From the IMG/VR virus record IMGVR_UViG_3300031146_000002, positions 177 through 64,176 of that record: a stretch of DNA of 64,000 bases, one strand, 5' to 3'. Under the pieces are notes generated by a model. The model saw only the letters and a program-made list of their open reading frames with translations. It searched no databases and was not told the origin of the DNA. This DNA is from a virus. Position numbers and translations under genes: made by a program. Of the stretch, positions 20,647 through 58,909 are shown piece by piece. Positions within the stretch are counted from its first letter, which is position 1, and each line of letters starts with the position of its first letter.

Positions 20647-21162
20647 CTACAGGCCGAGGCGACGCTTGATGGCGCGCAGAACTCGCCCGAGCCAGCGGGT
20701 TCCGTTGTCGTGGCCGTTGCCGAACTCCGACTCGGCGATCCGTGGCCCGGTGACGATCACCTTGCCGGTGACCTCCGTGCCGTTGACCCGCACGTCGGTG
20801 CGGATGTCGTGGATGATGCCGCCCTGCCGGATGTGCAGCTTGCACCGGCAGTTCGCGGTCAGGCCAGGTGACGCCTCGGGGTCGCGTGGTTCCCGCAGCC
20901 ACTGGGTCGGGCCGACGTCGTAGTGCTGCCGGTCGTAGTTCGGGCTGGGCAGGAGGAACCGCAGGTTCATAGGGATCTCGGTGCCGTGCACCAGCCGGTG
21001 CTCCGGGCGAACGTTGTGGTCCTCCATCGTGACCCACACCTTGGTGTCGGTCGCGGTTCGCTTGGCCTCCCGCACGAGCTCCTCGGTGATGCGGTTGACC
21101 CGCTTGGCGACCAGCCGCGCGACTTTGTAGTCCAGGTCGCGGTCGGGAACGAACGTCGTCAC
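20647..21162 (-). CDS. Neck (HK97 gp10-like) protein carrying a MuF-like motif
   Basis: KVWVTMEDHNVRPEH...ANCRCKL inside an otherwise gp10-like protein ending AESEFGNGHDNGTRWL. Confidence 0.6.
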   Translation of the reverse strand: MTTFVPDRDLDYKVARLVAKRVNRITEELVREAKRTATDTKVWVTMEDHNVRPEHRLVHGTEIPMNLRFLLPSPNYDRQHYDVGPTQWLREPRDPEASPGLTANCRCKLHIRQGGIIHDIRTDVRVNGTEVTGKVIVTGPRIAESEFGNGHDNGTRWLGRVLRAIKRRLGL

Positions 21163-21928: not shown

Positions 21929-23410
21929 CTACTGTCCACGGGCGAGGGTAGCCAGGATGCCGAGGGTGAACTGGCGCAAACCAGGGCCGGCGTCGTACTC
22001 CGGCACCACGCGGAAGAGCTCCTCGATGCCAGCCGAGAACACCTCCCAGTGCAGGCTCGCGGGATCGTCCGGCTCCGGCAGCCCGTCCTCAATGTCCTCG
22101 TACGTCTTGCCCACGTAAGGATCGATCCAGTCGTCCGGGTAGACCCACTCGCCTCGCGCGTAGTGGCTGCCACCCGGCAGATCCTGCCGGTCGCGCGCCA
22201 GCTCGAGGTTGCCGTCGGGTCCGGTTGCACGGCGGCGTAGGTAGCTGAACTCGAGCTCCTTTAGCCCCGGGACCATCTGCTCCATCCGATGCGCGAGCTC
22301 GTGCACCATCGTCTCGAGCGCGTAGTCGCCGAAGCCGTCGGACGGCACCTGGTCAGCCTCGGTTGGCAACACACCAAGCAGCTTTCTGTCCGGATAGTAG
22401 GAGCCTCGAGCGTCGCCGGTCACGTAGAGCTCGTCCTGCGCGGACAGTCGCAACCAGTCGCTCGGGAAGAACTTCTCCGCGGCCTTCAGTCGCTCCCTCC
22501 AGTCGGAGCGCAGCGGCACAGGGCTGCGCCCGTACCACTCGGTGACGTACGTGTGCGAAACGCCGCCCATCTCGCGGAGCTGAGAGAGCAGCGCGAACAG
22601 GATCTGCTGCCGGCGTTGGGCCAGTTGAGCCCGGGCCGGAGTGCGCTTCGGAAGACCTCTGACGCCCTCCTCAGTCACCACGATGGGACCGGTCACCGGG
22701 GCCAGATCCTCCGGGGTAAGCAGAGCCTCAAGTCGCTGGATCTCCGGGTCTGCCCGGTAGGCGGCCTGCAACGCCTCGTCCAGTGCCGCGCCAGCGTCCA
22801 GCACGGCGTCGAGGTAGCGGTGGTACGCCTCCGGCGGCATCTGCACGCCGTTGGCGTCTTCCTCGTATCGAGGCCAGAGTTCCTCGGGCATGTCCGGGTC
22901 CAGGTCGGGGTTGCGGGTTCGGGCCTCTCGTTCGACCCGGCGGAGAGCGGCCTCGAGGTTTGCAAGCTCTCGCCGTTCCCTGGTGAGCACGTAGTCGTTG
23001 GCTACACGCATGTCGATCTCGTCGGCAGACAGGCCGTACTCCCGAAGCTGTTCCGTCAGCTCCTGTTCCCGCTGAGCAATCCGTCTGCGGGTGTCCTCCA
23101 TCTGCGCCCGGACCTTCGCGACGCGACGCTCGCTCTCTTTCTGGGCTGGAAAGTAGTGGCCCCGGGCAGACATCCAGTCAGCACGACTGGCCGGAAGGAC
23201 GGCACGGGCCGCCTCGATGCGAGCCCGTTGGGCTCTGGTCAGCCGTGGGCCGCTCGACTGCCGCCGGGTCGTTGCCCGGCTGGGCGCGCGGCCGGTGGCC
23301 GGGCTTGCCGCCCCCAGCTTCCGGATGAACCGGCCACGCCAGTCTCGTGGATGCAGTTCTTCTCGCCACACGCGAGCCTTGGTCCAGGCTGGGAAAAGCA
23401 GAACGCCCAC
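21929..23410 (-). CDS. Tagged effector: HExxH zinc metallopeptidase-like protein
   Basis: Leader MGVLLFPAWTK-ARVWREELHPRDWRGRF; TMVHELAHRME and downstream WEVFS. Confidence 0.75.
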   Translation of the reverse strand: MGVLLFPAWTKARVWREELHPRDWRGRFIRKLGAASPATGRAPSRATTRRQSSGPRLTRAQRARIEAARAVLPASRADWMSARGHYFPAQKESERRVAKVRAQMEDTRRRIAQREQELTEQLREYGLSADEIDMRVANDYVLTRERRELANLEAALRRVEREARTRNPDLDPDMPEELWPRYEEDANGVQMPPEAYHRYLDAVLDAGAALDEALQAAYRADPEIQRLEALLTPEDLAPVTGPIVVTEEGVRGLPKRTPARAQLAQRRQQILFALLSQLREMGGVSHTYVTEWYGRSPVPLRSDWRERLKAAEKFFPSDWLRLSAQDELYVTGDARGSYYPDRKLLGVLPTEADQVPSDGFGDYALETMVHELAHRMEQMVPGLKELEFSYLRRRATGPDGNLELARDRQDLPGGSHYARGEWVYPDDWIDPYVGKTYEDIEDGLPEPDDPASLHWEVFSAGIEELFRVVPEYDAGPGLRQFTLGILATLARGQ

Positions 23411-26993: not shown

Positions 26994-27021
26994 AAGGTAG
27001 GGCCGGCGGGCCGCTAACGGC
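26994..27021 (-). promoter_or_regulatory. Putative late promoter
   Basis: GCCGTTAG-N14-TACCTT. Confidence 0.55.
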
Positions 27022-27985
27022 CATACGCCGGGTTCAGCAGCGCACCAGCCACTGACTGGCACACGCCGATGCCGTAGGCGAAGTCCTCTTCCCACGACGA
27101 CCGTGGTCTGAACCGCACCAGCACCGCCATGGCCCACGTCTTGGAGACCGCCATGCAGTTGACCCGCCACAGCCCGTCGCGCACGTAGTGGTTCCACCCG
27201 TTCTTGATCGCCACCCGGCTCCGCCCCGGCTCGGGCAGGACGTCACGGATGCCCCAGTCACCGATCCGCACGGTCCGCATCGCATCGAGCAGCCACGGAG
27301 TCCACTGTGGCCCTGCGGCTCGCCCGTCGGCGATGCAGTCCGCCACCCGGGCGGCGTCCGCGGCGGACACGCTGACGAACGACCAGCCGCCACCGGGGGT
27401 GGTGTCGGTCAGGCCGCAGGTGGCGATCATCCGACGGAAGGTCTCGTCACCACCGAGCCGCCGGTACAGGGTCTGGGCCGCCGCGTTGTCGCTGTCCCGG
27501 ATCATCGTGTCCAGCAGCTCCCCGTCGCCCTCGGTCAGGTGCGGGGTACGCGCCAGGTAATCGGCCGCCAGCCACGCCTTGAGCATCGACGCCGGCCACG
27601 TCGTCTCGTGCATGGTGGGCGACCCCCACAGCTGGCCGGTGGCCCGGTCGAGGACCGCGTACCCGACCCACACCCCGTCGTCGATGCGCACGGCCGCGGG
27701 CCGGAACCGGCCGGTCGGGGTCGGCGGAGCGAACGGCGACTCCGCGACCGGAGCGGAGAGCGCTACCTGCTCCTGAGCAATGGTGGCGGGGTTCTCCTGA
27801 GAGAGCGTGGCCGGGGTCGCGACGAGCGACAGCACCGAGAGCCAGACGACGACGCGACGCCACCATCTGCGGATGTTCGGGTCCGACACGCCGCGGATGA
27901 TGTCGAGGCCGAGATGCTTGCGTCCCCAATCCGCCCCAGCTAGCGTCTCAATCACGTGGGGCTCCATTGAGGGAACTGCATCCAA
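27014..27985 (-). CDS. Secreted or membrane-anchored serine hydrolase, class A beta-lactamase/DD-peptidase fold
   Basis: SxxK (ASMLK), SDN and K(T/N)G (IKNGW) motifs; N-terminal hydrophobic segment; start uncertain. Confidence 0.85.
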   Translation of the reverse strand: MDAVPSMEPHVIETLAGADWGRKHLGLDIIRGVSDPNIRRWWRRVVVWLSVLSLVATPATLSQENPATIAQEQVALSAPVAESPFAPPTPTGRFRPAAVRIDDGVWVGYAVLDRATGQLWGSPTMHETTWPASMLKAWLAADYLARTPHLTEGDGELLDTMIRDSDNAAAQTLYRRLGGDETFRRMIATCGLTDTTPGGGWSFVSVSAADAARVADCIADGRAAGPQWTPWLLDAMRTVRIGDWGIRDVLPEPGRSRVAIKNGWNHYVRDGLWRVNCMAVSKTWAMAVLVRFRPRSSWEEDFAYGIGVCQSVAGALLNPAYGR

Positions 27986-28100: not shown

Positions 28101-29417
28101 CTACTCCTCCAGGCTGCCCTTCACGAACGCCTCGGGCCGGTCCACCGTCAGGCAGATCCGCTCGTAGGCGCGGACCGTCACGACGCGCCGCTCGAAGTTG
28201 TCCTGGTTCTCGGTCGAGAAGTCGACCTGGGCGCCCCGCCGCTCGAACAGCTGGGCCCCCATGCCGAAGGCGCCGACGAGGTAGGTGCCCTGGGCGATCG
28301 CCGTGGTCGGAATGACCCGAGTCCGCCACACCCGGAGGGTGGAGCCGTCCTGGATCGAGGTGACCAGCGTCAGCCGGCCCATGTCGTCCTTCTCGAGCTC
28401 CATCTCCTCCCAGTCGAGCGGGTTCACGACCACGCCCGTGGCCTGGTACTCGGCCAGCTGGACGCGGGTGAGAGCCCGCCGGATGGTGGAGGTCATCGGG
28501 TCACCGGGGCGGCTGGCCCGGTTGAAGGTCTGCACCCCCGGCGTCTGGAAGATGCCGCGGATGTTGGGGTCCTGGCCGTCGCCGTGCAGGATGTCGTAGT
28601 CCTCGGCGAGGCGGAGGCCCTCGCGCATCTTGCCGTCGATCACGTTCCGCAGCCGGGGCTCGTCCTCGAGCACCGTCTGGTGGATGTAGTCGATGTGCCG
28701 AATCTCCGAGATCGGGTACGACACGTTCTCGAAGGTGATCTTGGAGCGCGGCGCCTTCCCGAACGTGTCGGTGTCGCCACCGGTCGGCGCGCTCTCCCCG
28801 TCGGCCGCGGTGCGCTCACGCACACCCCGGGCCGCGTTGACGAAGCCCGTCTGCCGGATGCCCCAGATCACCGCCGCCGTCGTCTGCTCCGGCGGGAACA
28901 GCTCCCGCAGGTGGTACGACCGGTCCGGCTGGACGACGATCGGCCGCTGCATGTCGCTGCCGAACGCCTGCCGGGTCAGCGTGCCGGCCGCCAGGCTCCA
29001 GACGTCCTTGGCCTCCATGCCGGCGGTGCTGTCCCACCACGAGGCGTCCTTGATCTCGATCGAGACCGAGTGACGCGACCGGTCGGCGCGCCACGCCTTC
29101 CACGCCTCGCTCTCGATGACGGCCTGGCCGATCGACTTGACCGACGGCCCGGCGGGCATGTACGGGTTGGCGTCCACCCCGCTGCCCTCGGGGGCGTCCA
29201 GGTAGGACTTGACGCGGTTGCCGGTCTCGATGGCCTTGCACGCCGCCTCGATCTGCTGGATCTCGTCCAGCAGCGCCTTCATGGCCTCGGACTGGCCCTG
29301 CGGCAGGACAACGGTGTCGCCCTTGACCTGGATCTGCTGGGTGATGCTGTCCAGCTCGGCTTGCTTCTGGTCAAGGACCTTGCGCAGGTCCTTGAGCGTG
29401 TCGGTTGCGGTAGGCAC
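28101..29417 (-). CDS. Major capsid protein, HK97 fold
   Basis: Coiled-coil delta domain; AEDYDILHGDG, VVVNPLDW, NFERRVVTVRAYER; GAGGAG RBS before GTG. Confidence 0.93.
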   Translation of the reverse strand: MPTATDTLKDLRKVLDQKQAELDSITQQIQVKGDTVVLPQGQSEAMKALLDEIQQIEAACKAIETGNRVKSYLDAPEGSGVDANPYMPAGPSVKSIGQAVIESEAWKAWRADRSRHSVSIEIKDASWWDSTAGMEAKDVWSLAAGTLTRQAFGSDMQRPIVVQPDRSYHLRELFPPEQTTAAVIWGIRQTGFVNAARGVRERTAADGESAPTGGDTDTFGKAPRSKITFENVSYPISEIRHIDYIHQTVLEDEPRLRNVIDGKMREGLRLAEDYDILHGDGQDPNIRGIFQTPGVQTFNRASRPGDPMTSTIRRALTRVQLAEYQATGVVVNPLDWEEMELEKDDMGRLTLVTSIQDGSTLRVWRTRVIPTTAIAQGTYLVGAFGMGAQLFERRGAQVDFSTENQDNFERRVVTVRAYERICLTVDRPEAFVKGSLEE

Positions 29418-29602: not shown

Positions 29603-31459
29603 TCAGGCGATCGGGGCTCGCCCGACAGACGCGAGGAGCTGGTTGAGCTCGTCGACGGACATGGTTTCGACCTGGCCACCGTCCTTGGTGGACAGGTCCC
29701 CGGTGCCGTCGCCGTCCACAACCTCGACGTCCTTCTCGGACAGCATGTCGAGGACGTTCTTCACCTCGCCCTCGATGCCGGAAGGCACCGGCACACCGGC
29801 ACTCGCCGCGAGGACCACCGAGTCCACGATCTCGTTGAGCGCGGAGCGGAGCGCCGCCTTGTCGACCGCGCTGGTGTCCGGCTGCTCGTAGCTCTTGCCC
29901 TCGGTGTCGGTCTCGTCGTTGAGGTCCGTGTTCGGCCGGATGACGGTCGCGCTGATCTCCACCGGAACCGGGGTACCGAGCCGAACCTCGGGGACCCCGC
30001 TGCTGGAGTCAATGGTGTACTCGACCTCGTAGGTCTCGGTCACCGACGGTCCGCGGTCCGGGGAGATGTGCACGCAGAAGACCGCCCGGTCGGGGTAGGT
30101 GCCGATGATCCGCACCCACCAGTGCGGCCTCTCCTCGCTGTCCTCGTCGTCCTCGTCGTACTCGTCGAGCAGGTCGGCGAGGATGTCGTCCCGGACGAGC
30201 TCCTCCACCGCGTGCTCGACCCGCTCGCGGGTCTCCTCGTACGAGCCCGCGAGGACCTCCATGAGCTTGACCTCGACCCCATCCAGTCCGTCGGCCACGA
30301 TCGGGGTCGCGCCTGCGAGCAGGATCTGGTCGTCGGTGGACAGGGCCTTGCCCTGGGCCTGGGTGCGCTTGCGGTGCTCGGCGTTCCACTGCCGGCGCCG
30401 CTCCCGCTCCGCGGCCATCACCTTGTCGAACGCCTCCTGCCACTGGCGGCGCCGTTCGCGCTCCTCCTGCTGCAGCCGCTTCTTCTCGTCGCCCTCGGCC
30501 GCGTCGATGCGGCGCTCGGCATCGAGCCGGCGCTGCTTCTCGGCCAGCCGCTCCTTGTCCATGGCCGAATCGAAGGCGTCCCGCCGGTCCATCTCCTCGT
30601 TCCGGGACGCGATCGCCGCCTCGTCCCGGCGGCTTCGGCTGCTGCCGCCACCGCCGCGGCCCTCCACGAAGCGGGTGTCGCCGGCGAGCACACGGGACAG
30701 CCAGTTCTGCGGCAACGCGAATCCGCCACCGCGGCGGGACCGGTCGTCATCGTCGTCATCATCGTCGTCGTCGGCCCACTGGCCACCGTCCGGCCGTCCG
30801 GCGGGGACGCGCGGCTGGTTGGGGTCGTACTTCACCTCGGTCGGGTCGGTGACGAAGCCGGTGGGCGTGGGCTCGGCGGGTTCGTCCTTGGTCTCCATGG
30901 TGGCCGTGTCGTCCGGTCCGGCGTCCTTGGCTGCGAGGGTCATGGTCAGCGGAGCGGCACCGTGGGCGACGTCAGACCACTCCCACAGGTCGATGTCACG
31001 CAGCTCGCGAACGCCGTCCTTCCGCCGGACGGCACCGTTGGGACCGTGCGGGTTGTAGCCGATCGACCACTGGCCCTCGGCACCGAAGAACTTGGCGTCC
31101 TCGAAGGCGTCGCGGCCGTCCTTCGTGTTGAGGTTGTACTGGGCCTTGACGTAGAGGGCCCCGGCCTCCTTCGGCCACGGGGTCACGCCGTCGGCCAACG
31201 TCTTGGGCAGCCGCGGGTCGCCAGGCATCCACTCCTCGATCACCAACGCCTTGGCGACCTTGCGGGTCTTGTCGTGGTAGCGCAGCCCGATGGGCTTGAG
31301 CTGCTTGAGGGTGCGCTGGTACGCGCCGGGGATGATGATGTCCTTCTGCCGGTCAACGACCCCGGTGATGGAGACGAGCGCCTCGACGATGCCCTGCTCC
31401 TCGTCGACGCCGAGCACGGTGCTCGTACCGGGGTCAGCCTGCTTGTACTCGATTCCCAC
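29603..31459 (-). CDS. Prohead protease (HK97 family) with long C-terminal extension containing the effector tag
   Basis: GIVEALVSITGVVDRQKDII.PGAY, GLRYHD, WSIGY, LWEWSDV..GA; then EVKYDPNQPRVPAGRPDGGQW. Confidence 0.9.
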   Translation of the reverse strand: MGIEYKQADPGTSTVLGVDEEQGIVEALVSITGVVDRQKDIIIPGAYQRTLKQLKPIGLRYHDKTRKVAKALVIEEWMPGDPRLPKTLADGVTPWPKEAGALYVKAQYNLNTKDGRDAFEDAKFFGAEGQWSIGYNPHGPNGAVRRKDGVRELRDIDLWEWSDVAHGAAPLTMTLAAKDAGPDDTATMETKDEPAEPTPTGFVTDPTEVKYDPNQPRVPAGRPDGGQWADDDDDDDDDDRSRRGGGFALPQNWLSRVLAGDTRFVEGRGGGGSSRSRRDEAAIASRNEEMDRRDAFDSAMDKERLAEKQRRLDAERRIDAAEGDEKKRLQQEERERRRQWQEAFDKVMAAERERRRQWNAEHRKRTQAQGKALSTDDQILLAGATPIVADGLDGVEVKLMEVLAGSYEETRERVEHAVEELVRDDILADLLDEYDEDDEDSEERPHWWVRIIGTYPDRAVFCVHISPDRGPSVTETYEVEYTIDSSSGVPEVRLGTPVPVEISATVIRPNTDLNDETDTEGKSYEQPDTSAVDKAALRSALNEIVDSVVLAASAGVPVPSGIEGEVKNVLDMLSEKDVEVVDGDGTGDLSTKDGGQVETMSVDELNQLLASVGRAPIA

Positions 31460-39623: not shown

Positions 39624-39845
39624 TCATGCTCCGCGACCGCCCGCCAACCGGGAATAGTAGTCGTCCTCCATCTCGGCAGTGGCCGCGATGTCGAGCGTGT
39701 GCTGGTTCGCGACCGACTCGGGGCCGACCTCGCCGAGCGGGAGGCCGGCCTCCTGGTCGGCGTACTTGCGTACCCACGCCGTGTGGGCGGCCTCGGTTGC
39801 TCGGAGCCGCTCCAGGCGCGCCGCTGACGGCCTGACTAGAGCCAC
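39624..39845 (-). CDS. Small partner protein of GNAT effector (homolog of 55613-55861)
   Basis: GGGAGG RBS; overlaps GNAT gene stop; aligns with 55613-55861. Confidence 0.7.
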   Translation of the reverse strand: MALVRPSAARLERLRATEAAHTAWVRKYADQEAGLPLGEVGPESVANQHTLDIAATAEMEDDYYSRLAGGRGA

Positions 39846-42436
39846 AGCACTGCCTCCCACTGCGATCCCATGCCGAGCCGCAAACCCAGCCACGTGTCAG
39901 TCTGCGGGCTCATGCCGGGTTGCCGGCCGATAGCGACGAACTCAGCGGGCGTCGGGAAGTCGTCGCTCCCCAGCCCGCCTTTCGTACGCTCAAGAATAGC
40001 ACGAGCGTCGATGAGTTCGCGCTTGAGTTGATCACGCAACGCGATCAGCTTCGCCTCGTCCCCGACGTTCTCTTTCTTGATCAACGGCACCGTCTGTGTG
40101 ATCTCGTACCTGTCGTCGGCGATTCGCTCCGGGGCGCGCGGGCGGCCGCCTTCCCGCTCGATCCGGATGTCACGGAGGAGCCGGTTCACCGCCCGCAGCG
40201 CGGATTCGTTCTCGGGGATGATGACCGACCGGAGCCTGGTGATCATCGAGTCGGCAGCGTCCTGGTCGCGGAAGTCGAAACCCGCCCGGGCCCAGGCGTA
40301 CCCGCCGACGTCGAGGCTGGCGAACAGGTGGATTCGCTCGACCCCGCCGGCCCTGTACCAGGCCTTGAGGTGCTCGAGGTACTCGGTCGCGAACCCCTGG
40401 CCGCGGACGCCCGGGTTGAGCTTGAGGATCTCGTGACGGGCGTTGAGCCCGGGCCCGTCCTCGTCGTCCTCGGTCCCGTCGGTCAGGAATCGTTCGCCGC
40501 CACCGACGAGGTTGCCGTCGTCGTCGTAGATCGAGATGTCGATGACGGTCTGGCCGGGCCTGAACCGAACCTCGTCCACCTTCACCGTCAGGCCGCCGAA
40601 GGTGCCCTCGTACGCCTCCCGGATTCCCTCCATCGCGGCGTCGCGGTCGAAGCTGCCGTCGTCGTCGTACGGCAAGATCACGTCGCGGGGCAGGTATTCC
40701 CAGTCCCTTCCCTGCGATCCCCGGCCGGCCGCGGCCGATGACCGTGCCGGCCGTGCCCGTGGCACGTCGCCGATGGCCCCGATGAGGTCGCTGACCCAAC
40801 GGCCGGAGAGGATGCCGTGCCCGGCCGGCACGCGAGGCTGGGTCCGCCAGTGATGGTCCTTGGTGCCCCACGTGAGGCTGATCGTCTTGGTGTCCGCTGT
40901 GGCGTCCAGCAGGGCGAGGACCCCAATCACGAACGCCCGCAAATCTCCCTTCGGGTCGAACCGACTCTTCCGGCCGAAGGTCTCCTCCATCCCCGTCGTG
41001 AACACCTCGGAGTGCTCGAAACCGTGACGGGCCACGGTGAAGAGCACGCCGTCGACGGTGGTGGTCGGCTCGTAGGTCCGCCCGGTGTAGGCGTCGGCCA
41101 GCTGGTCGCGGAACGTGTACTCGTTCTCCTGGCCGCTGATTCCGGGGCGGGCCTCTGTCATCGAGACCACGGGCTCGACCACGCCGCGGTGGGTCGTTCG
41201 GCGGCGCAGCCAGGCGAACTGGAGCTCCATCAGCCCGGGGATCACCGACTCCATCTGGTGCCCGAGCTCGTGAACAACAACCTGCTCGGTGTGATCACGG
41301 AAGGCCCCGGCGTAGGGCATGCGGTCGTCGGCCCCGCCCTCCCTGGGCATGGCGAGGACGGCGCTGGTGCCCCGGTCGAGGTGGTATGCGCGAGCGCTGG
41401 AGGCGATCGTCAGCCGCATCTGGGACGATCGCTCGATCCACGAGGTCGGGTAGTACTGCTCGGCCGCAGTCAGCCGCTCACGCCAGTCGCTCCGTGCACC
41501 GCCGGTCCGCGCCGCGGATGGATAGACCCGGGCATGGGTGGCGCCGCCGAACGGTCGGACCTGGGCCAGCAGCGCCCGCACCGTCTCAGCCTCGAGCGTC
41601 CGAACCTCACGGCCGGCCTCGGAACGCTCCAACACGGCCCGGGCACGCTCCCGGCTGCCGGCGGGCAGGAAGGCGATCGCCTCGGGTGACAGGTCCCCGA
41701 CCGTGAGCCGGCGGGCCAGCTCCCGGTACCGCTGATGGCGACGCAGGTACGCCTCGGCTTCATCGAGGATCGCCTGGCCAACCTCGAGCACAGTGTCGAG
41801 GTGGCGCTCGAGCTCGGGCGACGGCACCCGTTGGCCGAACGGGTCGGTGCGCAGGGCGGTCTGTGTCCCGGCGGGAATGGCCGGCAGCATGTCCTCATCG
41901 GGTCCCGCCCGCTCCGCCGCGGCCCGCGCCTCAGCTAGGGCCTTCTCCGCGGCCCGCACCCGCTCCCGGTATTCGGCCACCACCGAGTCGCGCCCGAGCT
42001 GCAGAAGACCCTGCCGGAACTGCTCGGCGTGCTGCACGGGAACCGGGTCACCGTCGAGCCAGCTTTCGATGGCGGCGAGATGCTGCCGGGCCCGGTCGAG
42101 CGCGACTTCGGCCTCCGCGACCTTCCGGTCTACCGCCCGCTCCTGCGGCCGCACCCATGCGTCGCCGACCCAGCCAGCGCGGGTAGTCGGCAGGGAGGCC
42201 CGGGCCCGTTCGATCCGGGCACGGAGGTCGGCCGACAGCGAGGGGGTCACGCTGCTCCTCGCCGGCGCCGGCGAAGTCCGGGACGCCGCCACCCGCGTCG
42301 GGGTGCTCCGCGAGAGGCGCAGCGGCGCCCTCAACAGCGAGCTGGGTTTGCGGGCGAACCGGCCACGCCAGTCCCGCACGACTCGCGACTCGTCCCAGAT
42401 CCGAGCCTTGGTGTAGTAGCGGGCTGCCAGGAGCAC
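39836..42436 (-). CDS. Tagged effector fusion: HExxH peptidase + internal second tag + GNAT-like domain
   Basis: Leader MLLAARYYTK-ARIWDESRVVRDWRGRF; VVHELGH; TWGTKDHHWRTQPRVPAG..SGRW; PGVRGQGFA..VGGYAWA. Confidence 0.8.
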   Translation of the reverse strand: MLLAARYYTKARIWDESRVVRDWRGRFARKPSSLLRAPLRLSRSTPTRVAASRTSPAPARSSVTPSLSADLRARIERARASLPTTRAGWVGDAWVRPQERAVDRKVAEAEVALDRARQHLAAIESWLDGDPVPVQHAEQFRQGLLQLGRDSVVAEYRERVRAAEKALAEARAAAERAGPDEDMLPAIPAGTQTALRTDPFGQRVPSPELERHLDTVLEVGQAILDEAEAYLRRHQRYRELARRLTVGDLSPEAIAFLPAGSRERARAVLERSEAGREVRTLEAETVRALLAQVRPFGGATHARVYPSAARTGGARSDWRERLTAAEQYYPTSWIERSSQMRLTIASSARAYHLDRGTSAVLAMPREGGADDRMPYAGAFRDHTEQVVVHELGHQMESVIPGLMELQFAWLRRRTTHRGVVEPVVSMTEARPGISGQENEYTFRDQLADAYTGRTYEPTTTVDGVLFTVARHGFEHSEVFTTGMEETFGRKSRFDPKGDLRAFVIGVLALLDATADTKTISLTWGTKDHHWRTQPRVPAGHGILSGRWVSDLIGAIGDVPRARPARSSAAAGRGSQGRDWEYLPRDVILPYDDDGSFDRDAAMEGIREAYEGTFGGLTVKVDEVRFRPGQTVIDISIYDDDGNLVGGGERFLTDGTEDDEDGPGLNARHEILKLNPGVRGQGFATEYLEHLKAWYRAGGVERIHLFASLDVGGYAWARAGFDFRDQDAADSMITRLRSVIIPENESALRAVNRLLRDIRIEREGGRPRAPERIADDRYEITQTVPLIKKENVGDEAKLIALRDQLKRELIDARAILERTKGGLGSDDFPTPAEFVAIGRQPGMSPQTDTWLGLRLGMGSQWEAVLWL

Positions 42437-42488: not shown

Positions 42489-43145
42489 CTACGTAGCCTG
42501 CACGGTCGCCTGGACGGGCACAATCCGCTGGCGCTCGTACACGAGCTCGTAGCCGGGTCTCACAACGGTGGCCGTGGCGCCGCGAGGAATGGGAGAGCCG
42601 ACGCTGCGCATCGAGGTCGGGTCGAACCGAACAGTGTCCCCGACGTTCGCTCCCGCGACCAGGGTCATCCTTCGCGCGGCCGCGATCGACGCGACCGCAT
42701 CCCTGATCTTGTCCGGGTCACCGTCACGTAGCGCCCGCGTGAGGGGCGCGAGGACCCGCTGAACCTCCTTCGGCAGCCGCCCATGGGTGTTGGCCGCCCA
42801 GTTCAGCGTCCGCTGGCTGGCCTCGTTCTCGACCATCTCGAGAGCGTCCGCTAGGGCGTCGCCCACCGTGCGGAACTCGGCGATGACCGTCTGCCGAGCC
42901 TGCTCCCGGGCCGCCTGCGCCGGAACGCCGCGGTCGAGCGCGTCAGCCAGAGCACGCAGCGCGGGCGTCCGCAGGCCGGGAGGGATGCTCACGCCGTGCC
43001 GGCGCACCCGGGACCGCAGAAGGCTGAGCGGCGATCGCCGGCCGCCCGGCTTAGGGGCAAACCGCCCTAGGGCGTCACGGAAGACCCGCGACTCGTCCCA
43101 GACGCGGGCCTTGGTGTACCAGAGCGGCGCATAGAGAACGGGCAC
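42489..43145 (-). CDS. Tagged protein with GrpE-like C-terminal beta domain
   Basis: MPVLYAPLWYTK-ARVWDESRVFRDALGRF; GDTVRFDP...ATVVRPGY. Confidence 0.7.
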   Translation of the reverse strand: MPVLYAPLWYTKARVWDESRVFRDALGRFAPKPGGRRSPLSLLRSRVRRHGVSIPPGLRTPALRALADALDRGVPAQAAREQARQTVIAEFRTVGDALADALEMVENEASQRTLNWAANTHGRLPKEVQRVLAPLTRALRDGDPDKIRDAVASIAAARRMTLVAGANVGDTVRFDPTSMRSVGSPIPRGATATVVRPGYELVYERQRIVPVQATVQAT

Positions 43146-53493: not shown

Positions 53494-54693
53494 TCAGGGG
53501 TCAGTCCGATTCGTAGCCCGTCCGTCGCCGGTAAGGCGCTTGGAAGTCACGCCGTCCGGGCGGCGCCGATAGCCCATGCGCTCCCAGAAGCCACGCGACG
53601 AGTCGAGAAGGGTGATCTCCTCGACGCCCTCGTCCCGGAGTACGACTTCCAGCCGCTCGACCCACCGCCGCGCGATGCCGCGGCCACGGAACTGGTCGCG
53701 GACGGAGATGCCGTCGACCTCGGCGCGCAGCTCCTCGCCGTTGGTCTTGAGCTGGATGCTCCATGACCCGGCCCACTGCTCGTCGATGTAGAAGTCGCCG
53801 GTGATGCCGCCGATGCGGAAGCTGCCGGTGCCGCTGACGTAGGTGCTGCGGATCTCCGACCGCTCCCCCGCCGGGTCGCTGTACTGCAGATGGTCGGTCG
53901 CCCACTGCCGCAGCCCTGGGCTTTCCGCGCCGAACGACTCCGGAGCGGACGACAAGGTGTCCAGCAGCGCTCGGCGCGGCTGCTCCCCGCCCGATTCTTC
54001 GCCTCGCTCGGGGGCCGTGTCGTCCTGAGCGCCGCCAGGGTTGCGCCGCCGCTCGAACCACTCACGTACGGCCCGGCGGGAGTAGACCGCCCGCCCGTTG
54101 CGGTAGTCGATGGGCTTCGGGAAGTCCGGGTGCCGGGCCGCCCAGTTGGACACGGCGGATGGCCTGACGCCGAGCTCGCGGGCGATGTCGGCGGCGTACA
54201 CCTCGTCGTCCGGGTCCCGGCCCTCCGTGGGAGGGTTGACCTCCGCCGGCCTGGACTGGCCCGGGCGGAGCAGCCCGAGCTGCTCGCGCCGTTCCCGCCG
54301 CTCACGCTTCTCCCGCTCGGCTTGGGCCTGGCGCTCACGCGCCTCGCGTTGCGCCTGCTGCCGCCGATCGAGCCACGCGAGGACCTCAGAGCGGCGGTAC
54401 ATGACGGATGCGGATGGGCTGTCGATCCGCTTGGGGAAGTCCGGGTGCCGGGCCGCCCAGTTGGTGATGGCCGCGCGGGTGACGCCCAGCTCACGGGCCA
54501 GCTGGGCAGATGTAGCGATGTCAGGGTCGTTGATGGCTCCCGCCGACTGTGATCGGCGCCGACCACGGCCGCCCCTGCCGTGCTCCGGTGCCCACCGCCC
54601 ACCGACGGAGATCCCGCCGATGATCGTGCCGGCGGCCCAACGCAGCTGGTCCGGGCGAAACCGTTTGACCTCGAATCGGGGCACGAGCAGCAC
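53494..54693 (-). CDS. Tagged effector: two wHTH domains plus GNAT acetyltransferase
   Basis: MLLVPRFEVK-RFRPDQLRW...GGRW; ARELGV...NWAARHPDFPK twice; VRDQFRGRGIA...FWERMGY. Confidence 0.82.
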   Translation of the reverse strand: MLLVPRFEVKRFRPDQLRWAAGTIIGGISVGGRWAPEHGRGGRGRRRSQSAGAINDPDIATSAQLARELGVTRAAITNWAARHPDFPKRIDSPSASVMYRRSEVLAWLDRRQQAQREARERQAQAEREKRERRERREQLGLLRPGQSRPAEVNPPTEGRDPDDEVYAADIARELGVRPSAVSNWAARHPDFPKPIDYRNGRAVYSRRAVREWFERRRNPGGAQDDTAPERGEESGGEQPRRALLDTLSSAPESFGAESPGLRQWATDHLQYSDPAGERSEIRSTYVSGTGSFRIGGITGDFYIDEQWAGSWSIQLKTNGEELRAEVDGISVRDQFRGRGIARRWVERLEVVLRDEGVEEITLLDSSRGFWERMGYRRRPDGVTSKRLTGDGRATNRTDP

Positions 54694-54699
54694 GCGGGG

Positions 54700-54727
54700 A
54701 TCGTGCATGCCCGAAAGGGCTTGTGAC
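54700..54727 (-). promoter_or_regulatory. Putative late promoter
   Basis: GTCACAAG-N14-CACGAT-N6-GTG. Confidence 0.6.
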
Positions 54728-55612: not shown

Positions 55613-55861
55613 CTAGTCGGTGGCGGGCCCGTCGCTGAGGATCTCGTTGAGGCGCCGGAAGAACCGGTCCTGCGCCTCGGCGGGGGCGTCCATCATCGTC
55701 GCGTGCAGGTTGTAGTCGGACGATTCCCGGTTCGTTCGGTCATCAGGCACGGGGCCGTCTACGCCGGCGGTGAGCTGCTCAGCGATCCACTGGCTGTGGA
55801 GCGCCTGCATCTCTCGGGCGCGCCGTACCCGCTCGTCGACGGGAAGAAGTCTCACCGCCAT
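55613..55861 (-). CDS. Small partner protein of GNAT effector (homolog of 39624-39845)
   Basis: Directly after GNAT gene; aligns with 39624-39845. Confidence 0.7.
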   Translation of the reverse strand: MAVRLLPVDERVRRAREMQALHSQWIAEQLTAGVDGPVPDDRTNRESSDYNLHATMMDAPAEAQDRFFRRLNEILSDGPATD

Positions 55862-55892: not shown

Positions 55893-57719
55893 TTACAGGT
55901 ACAGGACGCCGCGCCAGCTCGAGCCCAGCATCAGCCACTTGCCTGGCCAGATCGCGTTCCGACCGCCTTGGCCTTCCTGGCGGCCGAATCGGGCGATCTC
56001 CGGGGCGCTTGCCGGGCGTCGACCGGCGAGCATGTCGTCAATGTAGTCGAGCAGCTCGTCCATCTGCTGACGAGTCAGCCCCGCCGGGGGTGCGTTCCGT
56101 GCGGCCTCGACCCTGGTGCGTGCCCATCTGAGGAACGAATCAGCGGCGGCCTCGTTCTCGAACTCGAATCCCTGGGTGGCCCATGTGTAGCCGCCCACGT
56201 CGATGTTGGCGTGGAGGCGGACCCTGGTAACACCCGAGCGCCGGTACCAGTCGAAGAGGTTTGCCATGAGGCCGTGGGCGAACCCCGTCCCCCGCACGTT
56301 CGGCTCGAGGCGCAGGTAGGAGTGGTAGGCAACGAGTTCGCCGGTGAACGGATCGCGGTCGATCCGCGCTTCGGCGTGGCCGACCCGCCGACCAGTGGCG
56401 TCGTAGACGCTCGCGTCGAATGAAAGCCCGCTGGCCCGGCCGTCACTGCCACGCGCCACGGTGGCGCGGTCGACCTCCAGCCGCAGATCGCCGTACGTTC
56501 CCTCGACACCCATGCGGATGCCCTGCACGGCCTGCTCTTCCTGGGTCGACGCGGTAGCGATGAGCTCATTCAGCGGCCGGGTCCTACGGTTGAGGAGCAT
56601 GGACGGGTCCGGTGCTGCGACCGTGGGAGCGGCCGGCTCCCGGACCGTGACCCTCGACGTTCTAAGCCGTGGTGTCGGCGTCGGTGGGGTTTGCCGCGCC
56701 CGCCGGCGGGCCTGTTCCTCGGCGAACAACGCCAGGGCATCCATTGCGGCCTGGCGTGTGCGGAACGGTCCGCCAGGCACCCGGATGCCGGGCTCACCCG
56801 CAGGTGGAAGGGCGTACGCCTCCCATCCCGTCGAGCCTCGCTGACGCACCACCTGGCCCACGTACTCCCCGCCGCCGGATCTAGCGCTCGGGCCGGCGTA
56901 GACGTCGTACACGCCGGCCATGGCGGGAGCGCGGACTGCCCTGGTAGCCGGCGGCGTCCTTGTGCTCGGTGCGGATTCACCGGCTGCTGCGTCCATTAGC
57001 AGCCGGATCGCGCTGTCGCGGTCGTCGACAGCAGCTGCGGCACCCGGGGAACGCACGATCCGGCCATCCGGGGCAAGCGCAAGCCACCGCCCGGCCGGGG
57101 TGTCAACGACGATGCCCAGGTTGCGTTCGCCCTGCGTGACCCGGAACGCGGACCGCTCAGGAGCGGGCCAGGACCACGGGGTGAGCGTCACCTCCGGCAC
57201 GGACGTCGCCGCCTGGCGGGCCGCGCGGTCCTGCATCCGCTGGTGGTGGGCCAGCACCGTTTGAACCGCGGAGGCTTTCAGCCTGTTCGGGCCGTTGACC
57301 TGCAGCCACTGCCCGTCGGCGTCCTCAACGGACCACCCGAAGCTCCAGCGGTGGATGGCTCCCACCCTGGTGGAGCCCACGTAGATGTCGTGACTCTCCC
57401 TGGCAGGCCCCCATTGGTTCCGCGCCGGGGTCTCCCGACGAACCCCGTACACACCGGTCATGCCACCGGTGAGGTTCCGCGGCAGGGTTACCGCGCCTTC
57501 CGGAAGGCCTGCTGGGCGGGTACGTCTCGTTGACCGTGGCGCCGACCGTCGCGTGGTCGTCCGAGCCGCGCTGCTGGACCGCCGCGGCCTGGCCGATGAG
57601 CCGCCGAGGATGGCCGCCCAGCGGCCGCCGACGGCGATGCCGCCGATGATGGTGCCGGCGGGGTGGCGCGGCTGGTTGGGGTTGAAGCGTTTGACGGTGT
57701 ACCGCGGCGTCAGGAGCAC
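55893..57719 (-). CDS. Tagged effector with C-terminal GNAT-like domain
   Basis: MLLTPRYTVK-RFNPNQPRHP...GGRW; LEPNVRGTGFA...ANIDVGGYTWATQGF. Confidence 0.8.
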   Translation of the reverse strand: MLLTPRYTVKRFNPNQPRHPAGTIIGGIAVGGRWAAILGGSSARPRRSSSAARTTTRRSAPRSTRRTRPAGLPEGAVTLPRNLTGGMTGVYGVRRETPARNQWGPARESHDIYVGSTRVGAIHRWSFGWSVEDADGQWLQVNGPNRLKASAVQTVLAHHQRMQDRAARQAATSVPEVTLTPWSWPAPERSAFRVTQGERNLGIVVDTPAGRWLALAPDGRIVRSPGAAAAVDDRDSAIRLLMDAAAGESAPSTRTPPATRAVRAPAMAGVYDVYAGPSARSGGGEYVGQVVRQRGSTGWEAYALPPAGEPGIRVPGGPFRTRQAAMDALALFAEEQARRRARQTPPTPTPRLRTSRVTVREPAAPTVAAPDPSMLLNRRTRPLNELIATASTQEEQAVQGIRMGVEGTYGDLRLEVDRATVARGSDGRASGLSFDASVYDATGRRVGHAEARIDRDPFTGELVAYHSYLRLEPNVRGTGFAHGLMANLFDWYRRSGVTRVRLHANIDVGGYTWATQGFEFENEAAADSFLRWARTRVEAARNAPPAGLTRQQMDELLDYIDDMLAGRRPASAPEIARFGRQEGQGGRNAIWPGKWLMLGSSWRGVLYL

Positions 57720-57730
57720 GGCCGGATGAT
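57616..57730. repeat. 115-bp direct repeat, copy 1 (copy 2 at 58761-58875), encoding the tag
   Basis: Four mismatches, all synonymous in the tag. Confidence 0.9.
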
Positions 57731-57753
57731 CCGCTGGCCGCTCCGTTTACGTC
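57726..57753 (-). promoter_or_regulatory. Putative late promoter
   Basis: GACGTAAA-N14-GATCAT-N6-GTG. Confidence 0.65.
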
Positions 57754-57757
57754 GAGG

Positions 57758-58864
57758 TCAGCGGCCCCGTCTGCGGCTGCGCTGCGCGGCCGCCAGCGAC
57801 CCGTCGAACATCCAGTCGTAGTCCGGGACCTTCGGCTTACGACGGTCGTCGGCCGCCTTGGTTTCGACCAGCTGGCCCGTGTCGGGGTCATACACGCCGA
57901 CCTGCTCGAGCTCGATCAGGTAGCGGTCGCCATCCTCCGCTGAGGTCTTCTCGACGCGCACAATGCGGAACCTACCCCCGGTGACGTACTCCCGCGGGTC
58001 GTAGCGCTCCATGAACTGGGTGTATTCGCCGGCCGGGAGGTCATCGGGCGCGTCCAGTTGCCCACCCCGGACCGCCTTGGCGTCCCGGACCACGAACGTC
58101 ACGTCGGTTCCGTATCGGGCAACAACGTCCGCACGGGTGCCGAACGACGCGAGCGGCAGGTCGATGAAGGCGCCTTCCTTGAAGACAGCCGGCAGACCCA
58201 TGCCCATCAGGTCGACCCCGCGGTACAGCTCGGGCACACGAGGCGCGTCGCGAACGCCGCTCATCAGCACGTAGGCCTGCATGCGTCGAAGCTCTGGGAC
58301 GTTTAGGTTCCGCGTCACGCTGAAGCCGACGCGAGCCCCCGGGGCCTCGTCGTGGGAGACGTGTACATCCGCCTCGCGCCCTTCTGTGTCGAAACCGGCG
58401 AGCTCGAAGGCAGCGCGGCGGATCTCCCGTGCTGGAATCCAGTAGTCCCAGTCGCCACCCGACGCCATCAGCCGGGCTAGCACCTGCGGCGTGACCTCAC
58501 CGTCGTCCAGGCCGACCTCATCGAGCAGGCGGAGCTTCACGCCGGTCGTGTCACCGATCCGAACCCTGATCCGCTCGAGCTCAATCTGGCTCTCGCCGGC
58601 CTGACGCCGCCGGTGGTAGTCCCGCACCTGCTCGAGCAGCTCCTGGGCCCTCTCCCGGGCCCGGGAGCGAACGAGCGCCAGCGGATCGGGCGCGGCCGGC
58701 GCCGACGCTGCAGACCCTCCCGGCCAACGCCGCGAACGAAGGGCGCGGCCCAGGACCCGAGCCCAGCGGCCGCCGACGGCGATGCCTCCGATGATCGTGC
58801 CGGCGGGGTGGCGCGGCTGGTTCGGGTTGAAGCGCTTGACGGTGTACCGCGGCGTCAGGAGCAC
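57758..58864 (-). CDS. Tagged effector: ADP-ribosyltransferase (VIP2/exoenzyme, R-S-E type)
   Basis: LYRG, LASFGT, PREYVTGGRFRIV. Confidence 0.8.
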   Translation of the reverse strand: MLLTPRYTVKRFNPNQPRHPAGTIIGGIAVGGRWARVLGRALRSRRWPGGSAASAPAAPDPLALVRSRARERAQELLEQVRDYHRRRQAGESQIELERIRVRIGDTTGVKLRLLDEVGLDDGEVTPQVLARLMASGGDWDYWIPAREIRRAAFELAGFDTEGREADVHVSHDEAPGARVGFSVTRNLNVPELRRMQAYVLMSGVRDAPRVPELYRGVDLMGMGLPAVFKEGAFIDLPLASFGTRADVVARYGTDVTFVVRDAKAVRGGQLDAPDDLPAGEYTQFMERYDPREYVTGGRFRIVRVEKTSAEDGDRYLIELEQVGVYDPDTGQLVETKAADDRRKPKVPDYDWMFDGSLAAAQRSRRRGR

Positions 58865-58875
58865 GGCCGGATGAT
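58761..58875. repeat. 115-bp direct repeat, copy 2
   Basis: Matches 57616-57730. Confidence 0.9.
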
Positions 58876-58898
58876 GCCGACCAGAGGGGACTTGCGTA
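58871..58898 (-). promoter_or_regulatory. Putative late promoter
   Basis: TACGCAAG-N14-CATCAT-N6-GTG. Confidence 0.65.
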
Positions 58899-58909
58899 CG
58901 AACAGCGAG

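Follow-up and report, generated by a model that had tools for sequence, protein, structure and literature searches.

A phage gene joining a metallopeptidase to a GNAT acetyltransferase, very probably by fusion of two tagged genes with the second tag retained

The gene at 39836-42436 (minus strand) of a 64,000-nucleotide stretch of viral DNA (positions 177 to 64,176 of IMG/VR record IMGVR_UViG_3300031146_000002, here called the window) encodes an 866-residue protein in which a zincin-like metallopeptidase is followed by a GNAT acetyltransferase. Each half corresponds to a kind of free-standing gene that begins with the same short two-part tag, and the linker between the halves contains a further copy of this tag. 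Judged from the sequences, it is very probable that the gene arose by fusion of two tagged genes and that the second tag was retained. The best overall explanation, which we regard as reasonably probable, is that the product is a two-module mini-polyvalent protein formed by this fusion, that the tag is linked to the phage head, and that the internal tag is processed or docked.

Layout of the fused gene and its internal tag

The features of the fused gene, its two tagged paralogues and one further copy of the tag in the window are listed below.

39836-42436 (-): whole fused gene (P0001); tag, helical region, zincin, linker with second tag, GNAT, helical tail
42347-42436 (-): N-terminal tag, residues 1-30, from a motif scan and alignment with 11 other tags
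41552-42259 (-): helical hairpin or coiled coil of the first module, residues ~60-295 (AlphaFold2 (AF2) model m386fad8403fe, helices 69-291)
40901-41545 (-): zincin-like metallopeptidase domain, residues ~298-512; HELGH is residues 389-393 (41258-41272)
40733-40921 (-): predicted disordered linker between the modules, residues 506-568; predicted local distance difference test score (pLDDT) 33-51 (model residues 1-63)
40793-40894 (-): internal tag, residues 515-548, from pattern, profile, shuffle and alignment evidence
40202-40654 (-): GNAT domain, residues ~595-745; acetyl-CoA motif R-G-Q-G-F-A is residues 678-683
39836-40201 (-): C-terminal helical domain, residues 746-866 and stop codon; ends W.AV.WL
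21929-23410 (-): free-standing tagged zincin paralogue, 493 residues, in the structural module
55893-57719 (-): tagged paralogue with the same GNAT module at its C-terminus, 608 residues, from Pfam and BLAST-type alignment
30776-30841 (-): twelfth tag copy, inside the prohead protease-scaffold protein 29603-31459; TEVK, then YDPNQPRVPAG-RPDG-GQW

The reading frame is open from a GTG start and has a high third-position GC content. An identical 866-residue protein was found on several IMG and Logan contigs of up to 119-128 kb, and an assembly accident is therefore very unlikely. That the long frame is an artefact of a frameshift or assembly error, the DNA really holding two separate genes, is a general possibility for metagenomic contigs for which no specific support was found. 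It can hardly be right, given that the same frame recurs on these contigs, that the codon bias is uniform across the junction, and that the second gene would have neither a start codon nor a promoter-like element (described below) of its own.

Residues 8-510 of the fused protein align with the entire 493-residue product of 21929-23410 (33% identity, E 9e-59), which stops 4 residues past the aligned block. Residues 595-732 align with residues 391-530 of the product of 55893-57719 (40% identity, E 8e-25). Both relationships had been pointed out in an initial annotation of this DNA and are borne out by the alignments.

The two halves of the protein were modelled separately. The model of the N-terminal piece (mean pLDDT 84) consists of a disordered tag region of low pLDDT, a long helical hairpin, which resembles only generic helical hairpins, and a domain at residues 298-515. 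This domain carries the HExxH motif with downstream Glu residues expected of a zincin; H389, E390 and H393 are invariant and E396, E456 and E477 invariant or nearly so among 38 homologues, which leaves several Glu candidates for the third ligand. No Pfam, PHROGs or PDB sequence match to the zincin domain was found, and a PDB profile search returned coiled-coil noise only. The sole domain-wide structural match of the model, covering residues 298-515, is the catalytic domain of anthrax lethal factor (1yqy_A; VIA-align Z 7.2, below the Z of ~8 that the program describes as common, over 154 residues with a root-mean-square deviation of 3.9). Foldseek, given the 515-residue N-terminal module, returned only M32 zincins at a non-significant E of 0.05-0.3. 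In the model of the C-terminal piece (mean pLDDT 79) the linker 506-568, including the tag, lies mostly below 50 and the remainder near 90. The GNAT domain falls just under the cut-off of Pfam Acetyltransf_1 (19.7 against 20.7 bits, E 0.0011), which its paralogue and homologues pass. Its top Foldseek matches in the PDB are all GNATs (Naa50, NatD, TacT, GmvT), and the acetyl-CoA motif Q/R-x-x-G-x-G/A can be read from the sequence as R678-G-Q-G-F-A683. According to the alignment and the domain map of homologues, the helical tail always accompanies GNATs of this type.

The tag heads 11 genes of the window. It consists of a hydrophobic leader ending in [V/T/A]-Lys, followed by an aromatic residue, [HQ]PR, a variable loop and G-[RQ]-[FW]. 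The copy in the protease-scaffold protein directly follows the catalytic domain. The leader Lys is kept in all 13 tags of this phage; the fused protein as a whole is poor in Lys (16 Lys against 107 Arg). At the N-terminus of the fused protein the leader LLAARYYTK is followed by a degenerate core, W-DES-RVVR-DWR-GRF, from which the HPR has been lost. The internal tag reads DTK, leader TISLTWGTK and core W-RT-QPRVPAG-HGILS-GRW; candidate cut sites lie after K517 (T-K then T) and K526 (T-K then D). It had first been placed at 40796-40882, which is correct to within a few codons.

The internal tag sits precisely where the two homologous blocks meet, and its core has the heptapeptide QPRVPAG in common with the copy in the protease-scaffold protein. 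The pattern QPR.P.G occurs six times in the 115,405 residues of all six-frame open reading frames (ORFs) of the window, five times in N-terminal or protease tags and once at the internal site. The fuller pattern of leader Lys, aromatic residue and [QH]PR...G.[FWY] did not appear in any of 20,000 composition-preserving shuffles of the body of the fused protein. A profile built exclusively from 32 tags of proteins outside the window ranks the internal site first among all non-tag positions (8.6 bits, independent E-value 0.1; the next background match has 6.5 bits) and recovers nine window tags at 15.6-22.4 bits. Three tags that head genes, those of the fused gene itself, of 42489-43145 and of 53494-54708, have lost the HPR and score below the internal site with this profile; degenerate tags are therefore common among the working tags of this phage. 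On the sequence evidence the internal tag is a weak copy yet beyond chance.

Origin by fusion and the spread of the tag

An exhaustive phmmer search of 1.84 billion representatives gave 1,385 homologues of the fused protein, the best 149 of which were mapped for domains. In about 75 of the 77 mapped proteins that have it, the peptidase module stands at the extreme C-terminus. The closest peptidase homologues, P0006-P0008, are proteins of ~500 residues, 38-39% identical, and carry the same N-terminal tag; like the product of 21929-23410, they terminate where the first half of the fused protein ends. The GNAT and its helical tail behave as a unit, which is found solo, at the ends of proteins that contain MuF or a portal, or in as many as nine copies in proteins of up to 7,601 residues. 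The homologues as a whole extend from solo proteins of 200 residues to these multi-GNAT proteins. In the free-standing GNATs P0075, P0118 and P0145 (266-348 residues) the N-terminal tag can be aligned with the internal tag in every column, and the C-terminal W.GV.WL motif is shared with the fused protein. Residues ~515-866 thus equal a complete tagged GNAT gene. Split homologues, for which the initial annotation had advised a search, therefore exist as free-standing tagged versions of both halves, in the same genome and in other phages, and they match the respective halves as expected if two tagged genes were fused.

One homologue, P0026, was the only one to align past residue 510; it has no tag there, and that part of the alignment is spurious.

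The order peptidase then GNAT was found in none of the 149 mapped homologues, and no peptidase was found anywhere in 80 IMG/VR loci containing this GNAT. In the related phage G001 (IMGVR_UViG_3300031912_000871; 87 kb, 95% complete) a tagged peptidase adjoins the capsid gene and no GNAT was found. The fusion therefore appears to be lineage-specific.

Between the normal end of the peptidase and the internal leader there are only 8 residues, and ahead of the internal tag there is no in-frame start codon (the only GTG is out of frame) and no promoter-like element. These observations indicate that stop, promoter and start were lost by a small in-frame deletion. The deletion joined a tagged zincin gene to the next tagged gene, a GNAT, taking out the stop codon of the former and both promoter and start codon of the latter, and the complete two-part tag of the GNAT is now translated inside a disordered linker of ~65 residues. 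A small partner gene was duplicated together with the GNAT (39624-39845 and 55613-55861, E 8e-6).

The tag also stands between modules of larger proteins. In P0014, P0084 and P0091 a near-perfect copy precedes each of 4-6 modules, GNAT and ADP-ribosyltransferase among them. Several viral ORFs have the order X-tag-GNAT, and a viral protein of 1,994 residues (L039:655-6636) has the order portal-NUDIX-tag-GNAT, its internal tag thus lying in what is already a head protein. The earlier suggestion that multi-domain proteins of this kind could be built from tagged modules is supported by both arrangements. Protein gp48 of Streptomyces phage Gilgamesh (L008:4806-18680), encoded between portal-MuF and protease, is 4,624 residues long, has no Pfam domain and starts LEVK..RRK-WNPALHPRDSKGRF. 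Near-identical tagged giant ORFs of the Gilgamesh type (L091-L125) were found in ~33 Streptomyces and Kitasatospora assemblies, many on contigs of ~125 kb, which may be plasmid-like prophages or phage carried in the cultures. No tags were found in Gordonia phage Gray, which has a related protease, and short tag peptides compared by tblastn with cultured phages returned no matches, such queries being too short for that database. Literature searches with the motif spelled out gave nothing relevant, and no published description of the motif was found.

In the window the tagged gene 55893-57719 and its neighbour 57758-58864 (minus strand) have ~105 nearly identical nucleotides, comprising the -10 region and the whole tag with 4 mismatches, after which they diverge abruptly; the stretches concerned are 57560-57760 and 58705-58905 (minus strand). 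This looks like cassette-style exchange at the tag. Together with the tag in the protease-scaffold protein and the motif before every module elsewhere, the near-identical DNA lends support to a cassette model that would make the tag a recombination handle as well as a functional junction. Polyvalent phage proteins are known; the fused gene displays the elementary step of their assembly from modules. What it contributes is a minimal, well-documented fusion whose two parents, a tagged peptidase gene and a tagged GNAT gene followed by a small partner gene, can still be seen in this genome as well as in other phages.

The tag, the phage head and possible cleavage

The window is nearly all of a 64,188-bp virus record, which CheckV rates 51% complete. 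It has 70% G+C, and nearly all genes lie on the minus strand. The large terminase is nearest to that of Gilgamesh (48% identity), and the head genes encode an HK97-fold capsid protein, a portal joined to MuF and an S78 prohead serine protease that continues into a long scaffold-like region. The uncultured phage is of a Streptomyces type of roughly 120 kb, and because the motif heads giant Gilgamesh-like ORFs in the ~33 Streptomyces and Kitasatospora assemblies, its host is very probably an actinomycete of the Streptomyces group.

Tagged genes and virion genes have a promoter-like element in common. It consists of KACnnWA[GC], 14 nucleotides and nAnnnT, and was found 20 times on the coding strand and once on the other, against 1.4 in shuffles. 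It usually lies 6-8 nucleotides 5' of a GTG or ATG, so the genes it serves would be leaderless, as would most tagged genes. It is found, too, ahead of the portal operon, of the protease gene and of genes in the tail region. Positions on the minus strand are as follows.

60700, 58898, 47900, 46842, 43180, 42470, 34136, 31520, 27924 (-): promoter-like element
26342, 23463, 21924, 20180, 5027, 4827, 4252, 3998, 2679 and others (-): promoter-like element, continued

Because the tag heads 11 genes with a virion-type promoter and occurs in the protease-scaffold protein, it most likely ties these proteins to head assembly. The protease-scaffold tag is kept at the same position in phage G001 (L009:6448-8391), the protease of which is 40% identical; the single tagged cargo gene of that phage, a zincin, comes right after the capsid gene. 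Remote homologues of both domains occur at the C-termini of MuF proteins encoded beside portal genes (Jera gp5, vB_BboS-125 gp68). Promoter type, protease-scaffold tag and these MuF-fused homologues together suggest that the tagged proteins may be packaged in the head and delivered with the DNA. On this basis the tag may be described as a widespread junction or header motif that precedes the effector modules of head-associated polyvalent proteins.

Candidate sites of cleavage after Lys occur in two head proteins.

29007-29009 (-): codon of capsid Lys178, predicted maturation cleavage site (EAK, then DVWS), invariant in three related capsids
30926-30928 (-): codon of protease Lys178, candidate self-release site ([A/V]-K then [D/S]-A), invariant in three phages

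The capsid site, [A/G]-K then [D/S], lies 28 residues before the block RSYHLRELF, which aligns with RRLTIRDLL of HK97, and its position is presumably that of the maturation cut of HK97 between Lys103 and Ser104. In HK97 the delta domain is said to be removed after Lys103 by a protease of the S78 family, as reported by Duda, Hendrix and colleagues. The phage described here resembles HK97 in its capsid fold, its S78 protease and the invariant Lys at the homologous capsid position, and differs from it in that its protease runs on into a long scaffold-like region and carries a tag. We know of no cargo proteins with a shared tag in HK97. The protease site coincides with the end of the protease domain. 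In the Gilgamesh protease an LEVK had been taken for a tag leader and was rejected, because the alignment places it at the conserved Lys178, at the end of the catalytic domain.

In the proposed mechanism the internal tag would remain an exposed processing or docking site, and the peptidase and GNAT halves would be separated in the maturing head, the most probable cutter being the S78 prohead protease, acting after Lys526 or Lys517. The capsid and protease Lys sites, the leader Lys in all tags and the disordered linker are consistent with cleavage after Lys. Whether the internal tag still functions is about evenly balanced; cleavage after Lys by the prohead protease in particular, which is argued by analogy, is possible but not probable.

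Several observations speak against a working internal tag or against a Lys rule. The internal copy is degenerate; with the foreign profile it scores 8.6 bits, whereas good copies reach 15-23 bits. Profiles trained on the 12 tags of the window itself give it 5-6 bits, inside the background; being over-fitted, they did not separate the site from background, and the foreign profile and the shuffle test were used instead. Gilgamesh gp48, for all its size, has a single N-terminal tag, so internal tags are not needed for packaging. In other lineages the residue preceding the core motif is not Lys, and a Lys rule would therefore be lineage-specific. Finally, no diverged orthologue of the fusion was found in the protein, IMG/VR or Streptomyces-group searches. 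A word-based protein search with the fused protein returned the query itself only, and locus searches of IMG/VR with P0001, P0014 and P0075 gave no related loci. In 34 motif-carrying genomes of the Streptomyces group the search, the first look of which was stricter and may miss weak matches, turned up only a single weak homologue of the peptidase and no counterpart of the fused gene.

The degeneracy of the internal copy (5-9 bits) is what would be expected if the fusion occurred as described and the internal tag were a non-functional relic of a recent event, the N-terminal tag loading the intact protein. An architecture unique among the 149 homologues and 80 viral loci is probably young, and gp48 of Gilgamesh manages with its one N-terminal tag. 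We nevertheless consider a relic rather unlikely, since the tags of the fused gene's N-terminus, 42489-43145 and 53494-54708 are at least as degenerate and yet head intact genes, since the internal tag has kept its leader Lys as well as the QPRVPAG...GRW core, and since internal tags are strongly conserved in other polyproteins. Cleavage, if it takes place, might also be the work of the protein's own zincin, acting in cis or in trans, whether before the protein is packaged or once it has been injected, with no part played by the prohead protease. The intact HExxH with its conserved downstream Glu lies directly upstream of the linker, the modelled fold resembles that of lethal factor, and self-cleavage has been proposed for the metallopeptidases of polyvalent proteins in passages of Iyer et al. 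2017 (PMC5512222). Most tagged proteins of this phage, however, have the same leader-Lys tag without a zincin, the tag is also found in the serine protease-scaffold protein, and nearly all homologues end with the zincin, which leaves no downstream part to be released; self-cleavage is accordingly judged quite improbable.

The tag might instead act after entry and be no head signal at all, for example by docking each module, cut or uncut, on a host or DNA-bound partner. All modules of P0014, P0084 and P0091 have retained a near-perfect copy, and the tag stands inside a portal fusion, where an address to the head is superfluous. Such a role is nonetheless hard to reconcile with the conserved copy in the prohead protease-scaffold protein, for which no role in the next host is apparent, with the promoter type common to virion genes, and with the position of tagged genes among head genes in related phages, and it is given a low probability. 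The reading preferred here thus remains a head-linked tag, the internal copy of which is processed or docked. A more general form of it, that leader Lys and [HQ]PR...G[RK][FW] together make a portable load-and-cut junction read by protease-scaffold machinery of the HK97 type, is tentative. If it were true, any enzyme gene gaining the tag would become head cargo, and neighbouring tagged genes could fuse and split freely because the junction would be processed either way, the fused gene being a snapshot of this process; the tag would then be a programmable signal by which cargo is loaded into HK97-like capsids. Should the tag turn out to direct loading or cleavage, it would offer a simple means of packing foreign proteins into capsids of the HK97 type and would make injected effectors predictable in phage genomes.

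Related systems and neighbouring genes

Polyvalent proteins of phages and conjugative elements were described by Iyer, Burroughs, Anand, de Souza and Aravind (2017, PMC5512222), passages of which name a zincin-like metallopeptidase, related by those authors to lethal factor, as the hub domain and propose that modules are released proteolytically. The fused protein combines at least two distinct enzymatic domains, zincin and GNAT, in one chain with a disordered linker between them; it is encoded by a phage, and its domains recur solo and in other combinations. It qualifies as a small polyvalent protein, and it shares with that class the pairing of a zincin-like metallopeptidase with a GNAT, the existence of solo versions of the domains and the association with MuF and portal head genes. 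Unlike typical members of the class it has two modules only. The header or junction motif (aromatic-[DN]P..[HQ]PR...G[RK][FW]) is not mentioned in those passages of PMC5512222 that were searched.

Of the known packaging systems, capsid targeting and gp21 trimming in T4 appear, by analogy, the most similar to the tagged system, with an unrelated and internally reusable tag. In passages of PMC9958956 the T4 capsid-targeting sequence (CTS) is a leader of ~10 N-terminal residues on the unrelated internal proteins IPII and IPIII (Mullaney and Black 1996), which localises proteins to the prohead core; gp21 trims small N-terminal peptides from IPI-III and Alt, an ADP-ribosyltransferase, and IPI is injected with the DNA. 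In both phages a short N-terminal leader is common to otherwise unrelated proteins. The tag described here, predicted from sequence, differs from the CTS in sequence and in having two parts, of which the core of ~15-25 residues would be left on the product. A further difference is that copies of it are found internally and in the protease, which is of the HK97 (S78) and not of the T4 type.

Effectors with the same types of GNAT and zincin domain are anchored to MuF in Microbacterium phage Jera (gp5) and Bacillus phage vB_BboS-125 (gp68), where they are the C-terminal part of proteins whose genes directly follow that of the portal. The carrier there is a whole MuF domain, whereas in the present phage MuF is fused to the portal and the effectors have the short tag only. 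No match to MuF (PF04233) was found in the fused protein, which is therefore not a MuF toxin. A short second copy of MuF is encoded at 20647-21162 of the window.

Both GNAT genes of the window are trailed by a small gene, and the two small genes, coding for 73-82 residues, are homologous.

39624-39845 (-): small gene, 73 residues, overlapping the 3' end of the fused gene; homologous to 55613-55861 (-) (BLASTP E 8e-6)

Because the modelled GNAT is structurally like the toxins TacT and GmvT, these small partners may be immunity- or antitoxin-like.

Just upstream of the fused gene, the product of 42489-43145 (minus strand) has its first ~96 residues in common with the fused protein (42149-42436; 42% identity, E 1e-10). 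A 5' region comprising a tag with HPR-less core and the next stretch is thus duplicated on two different bodies. There is, in addition, a weak match between the N-terminus of the same product and the middle of PHROG 113, which is a portal family. The gene that comes directly after that of the capsid, 27014-27985 (minus strand), encodes a protein of the beta-lactamase family (PF13354) and has a promoter-like element of its own.

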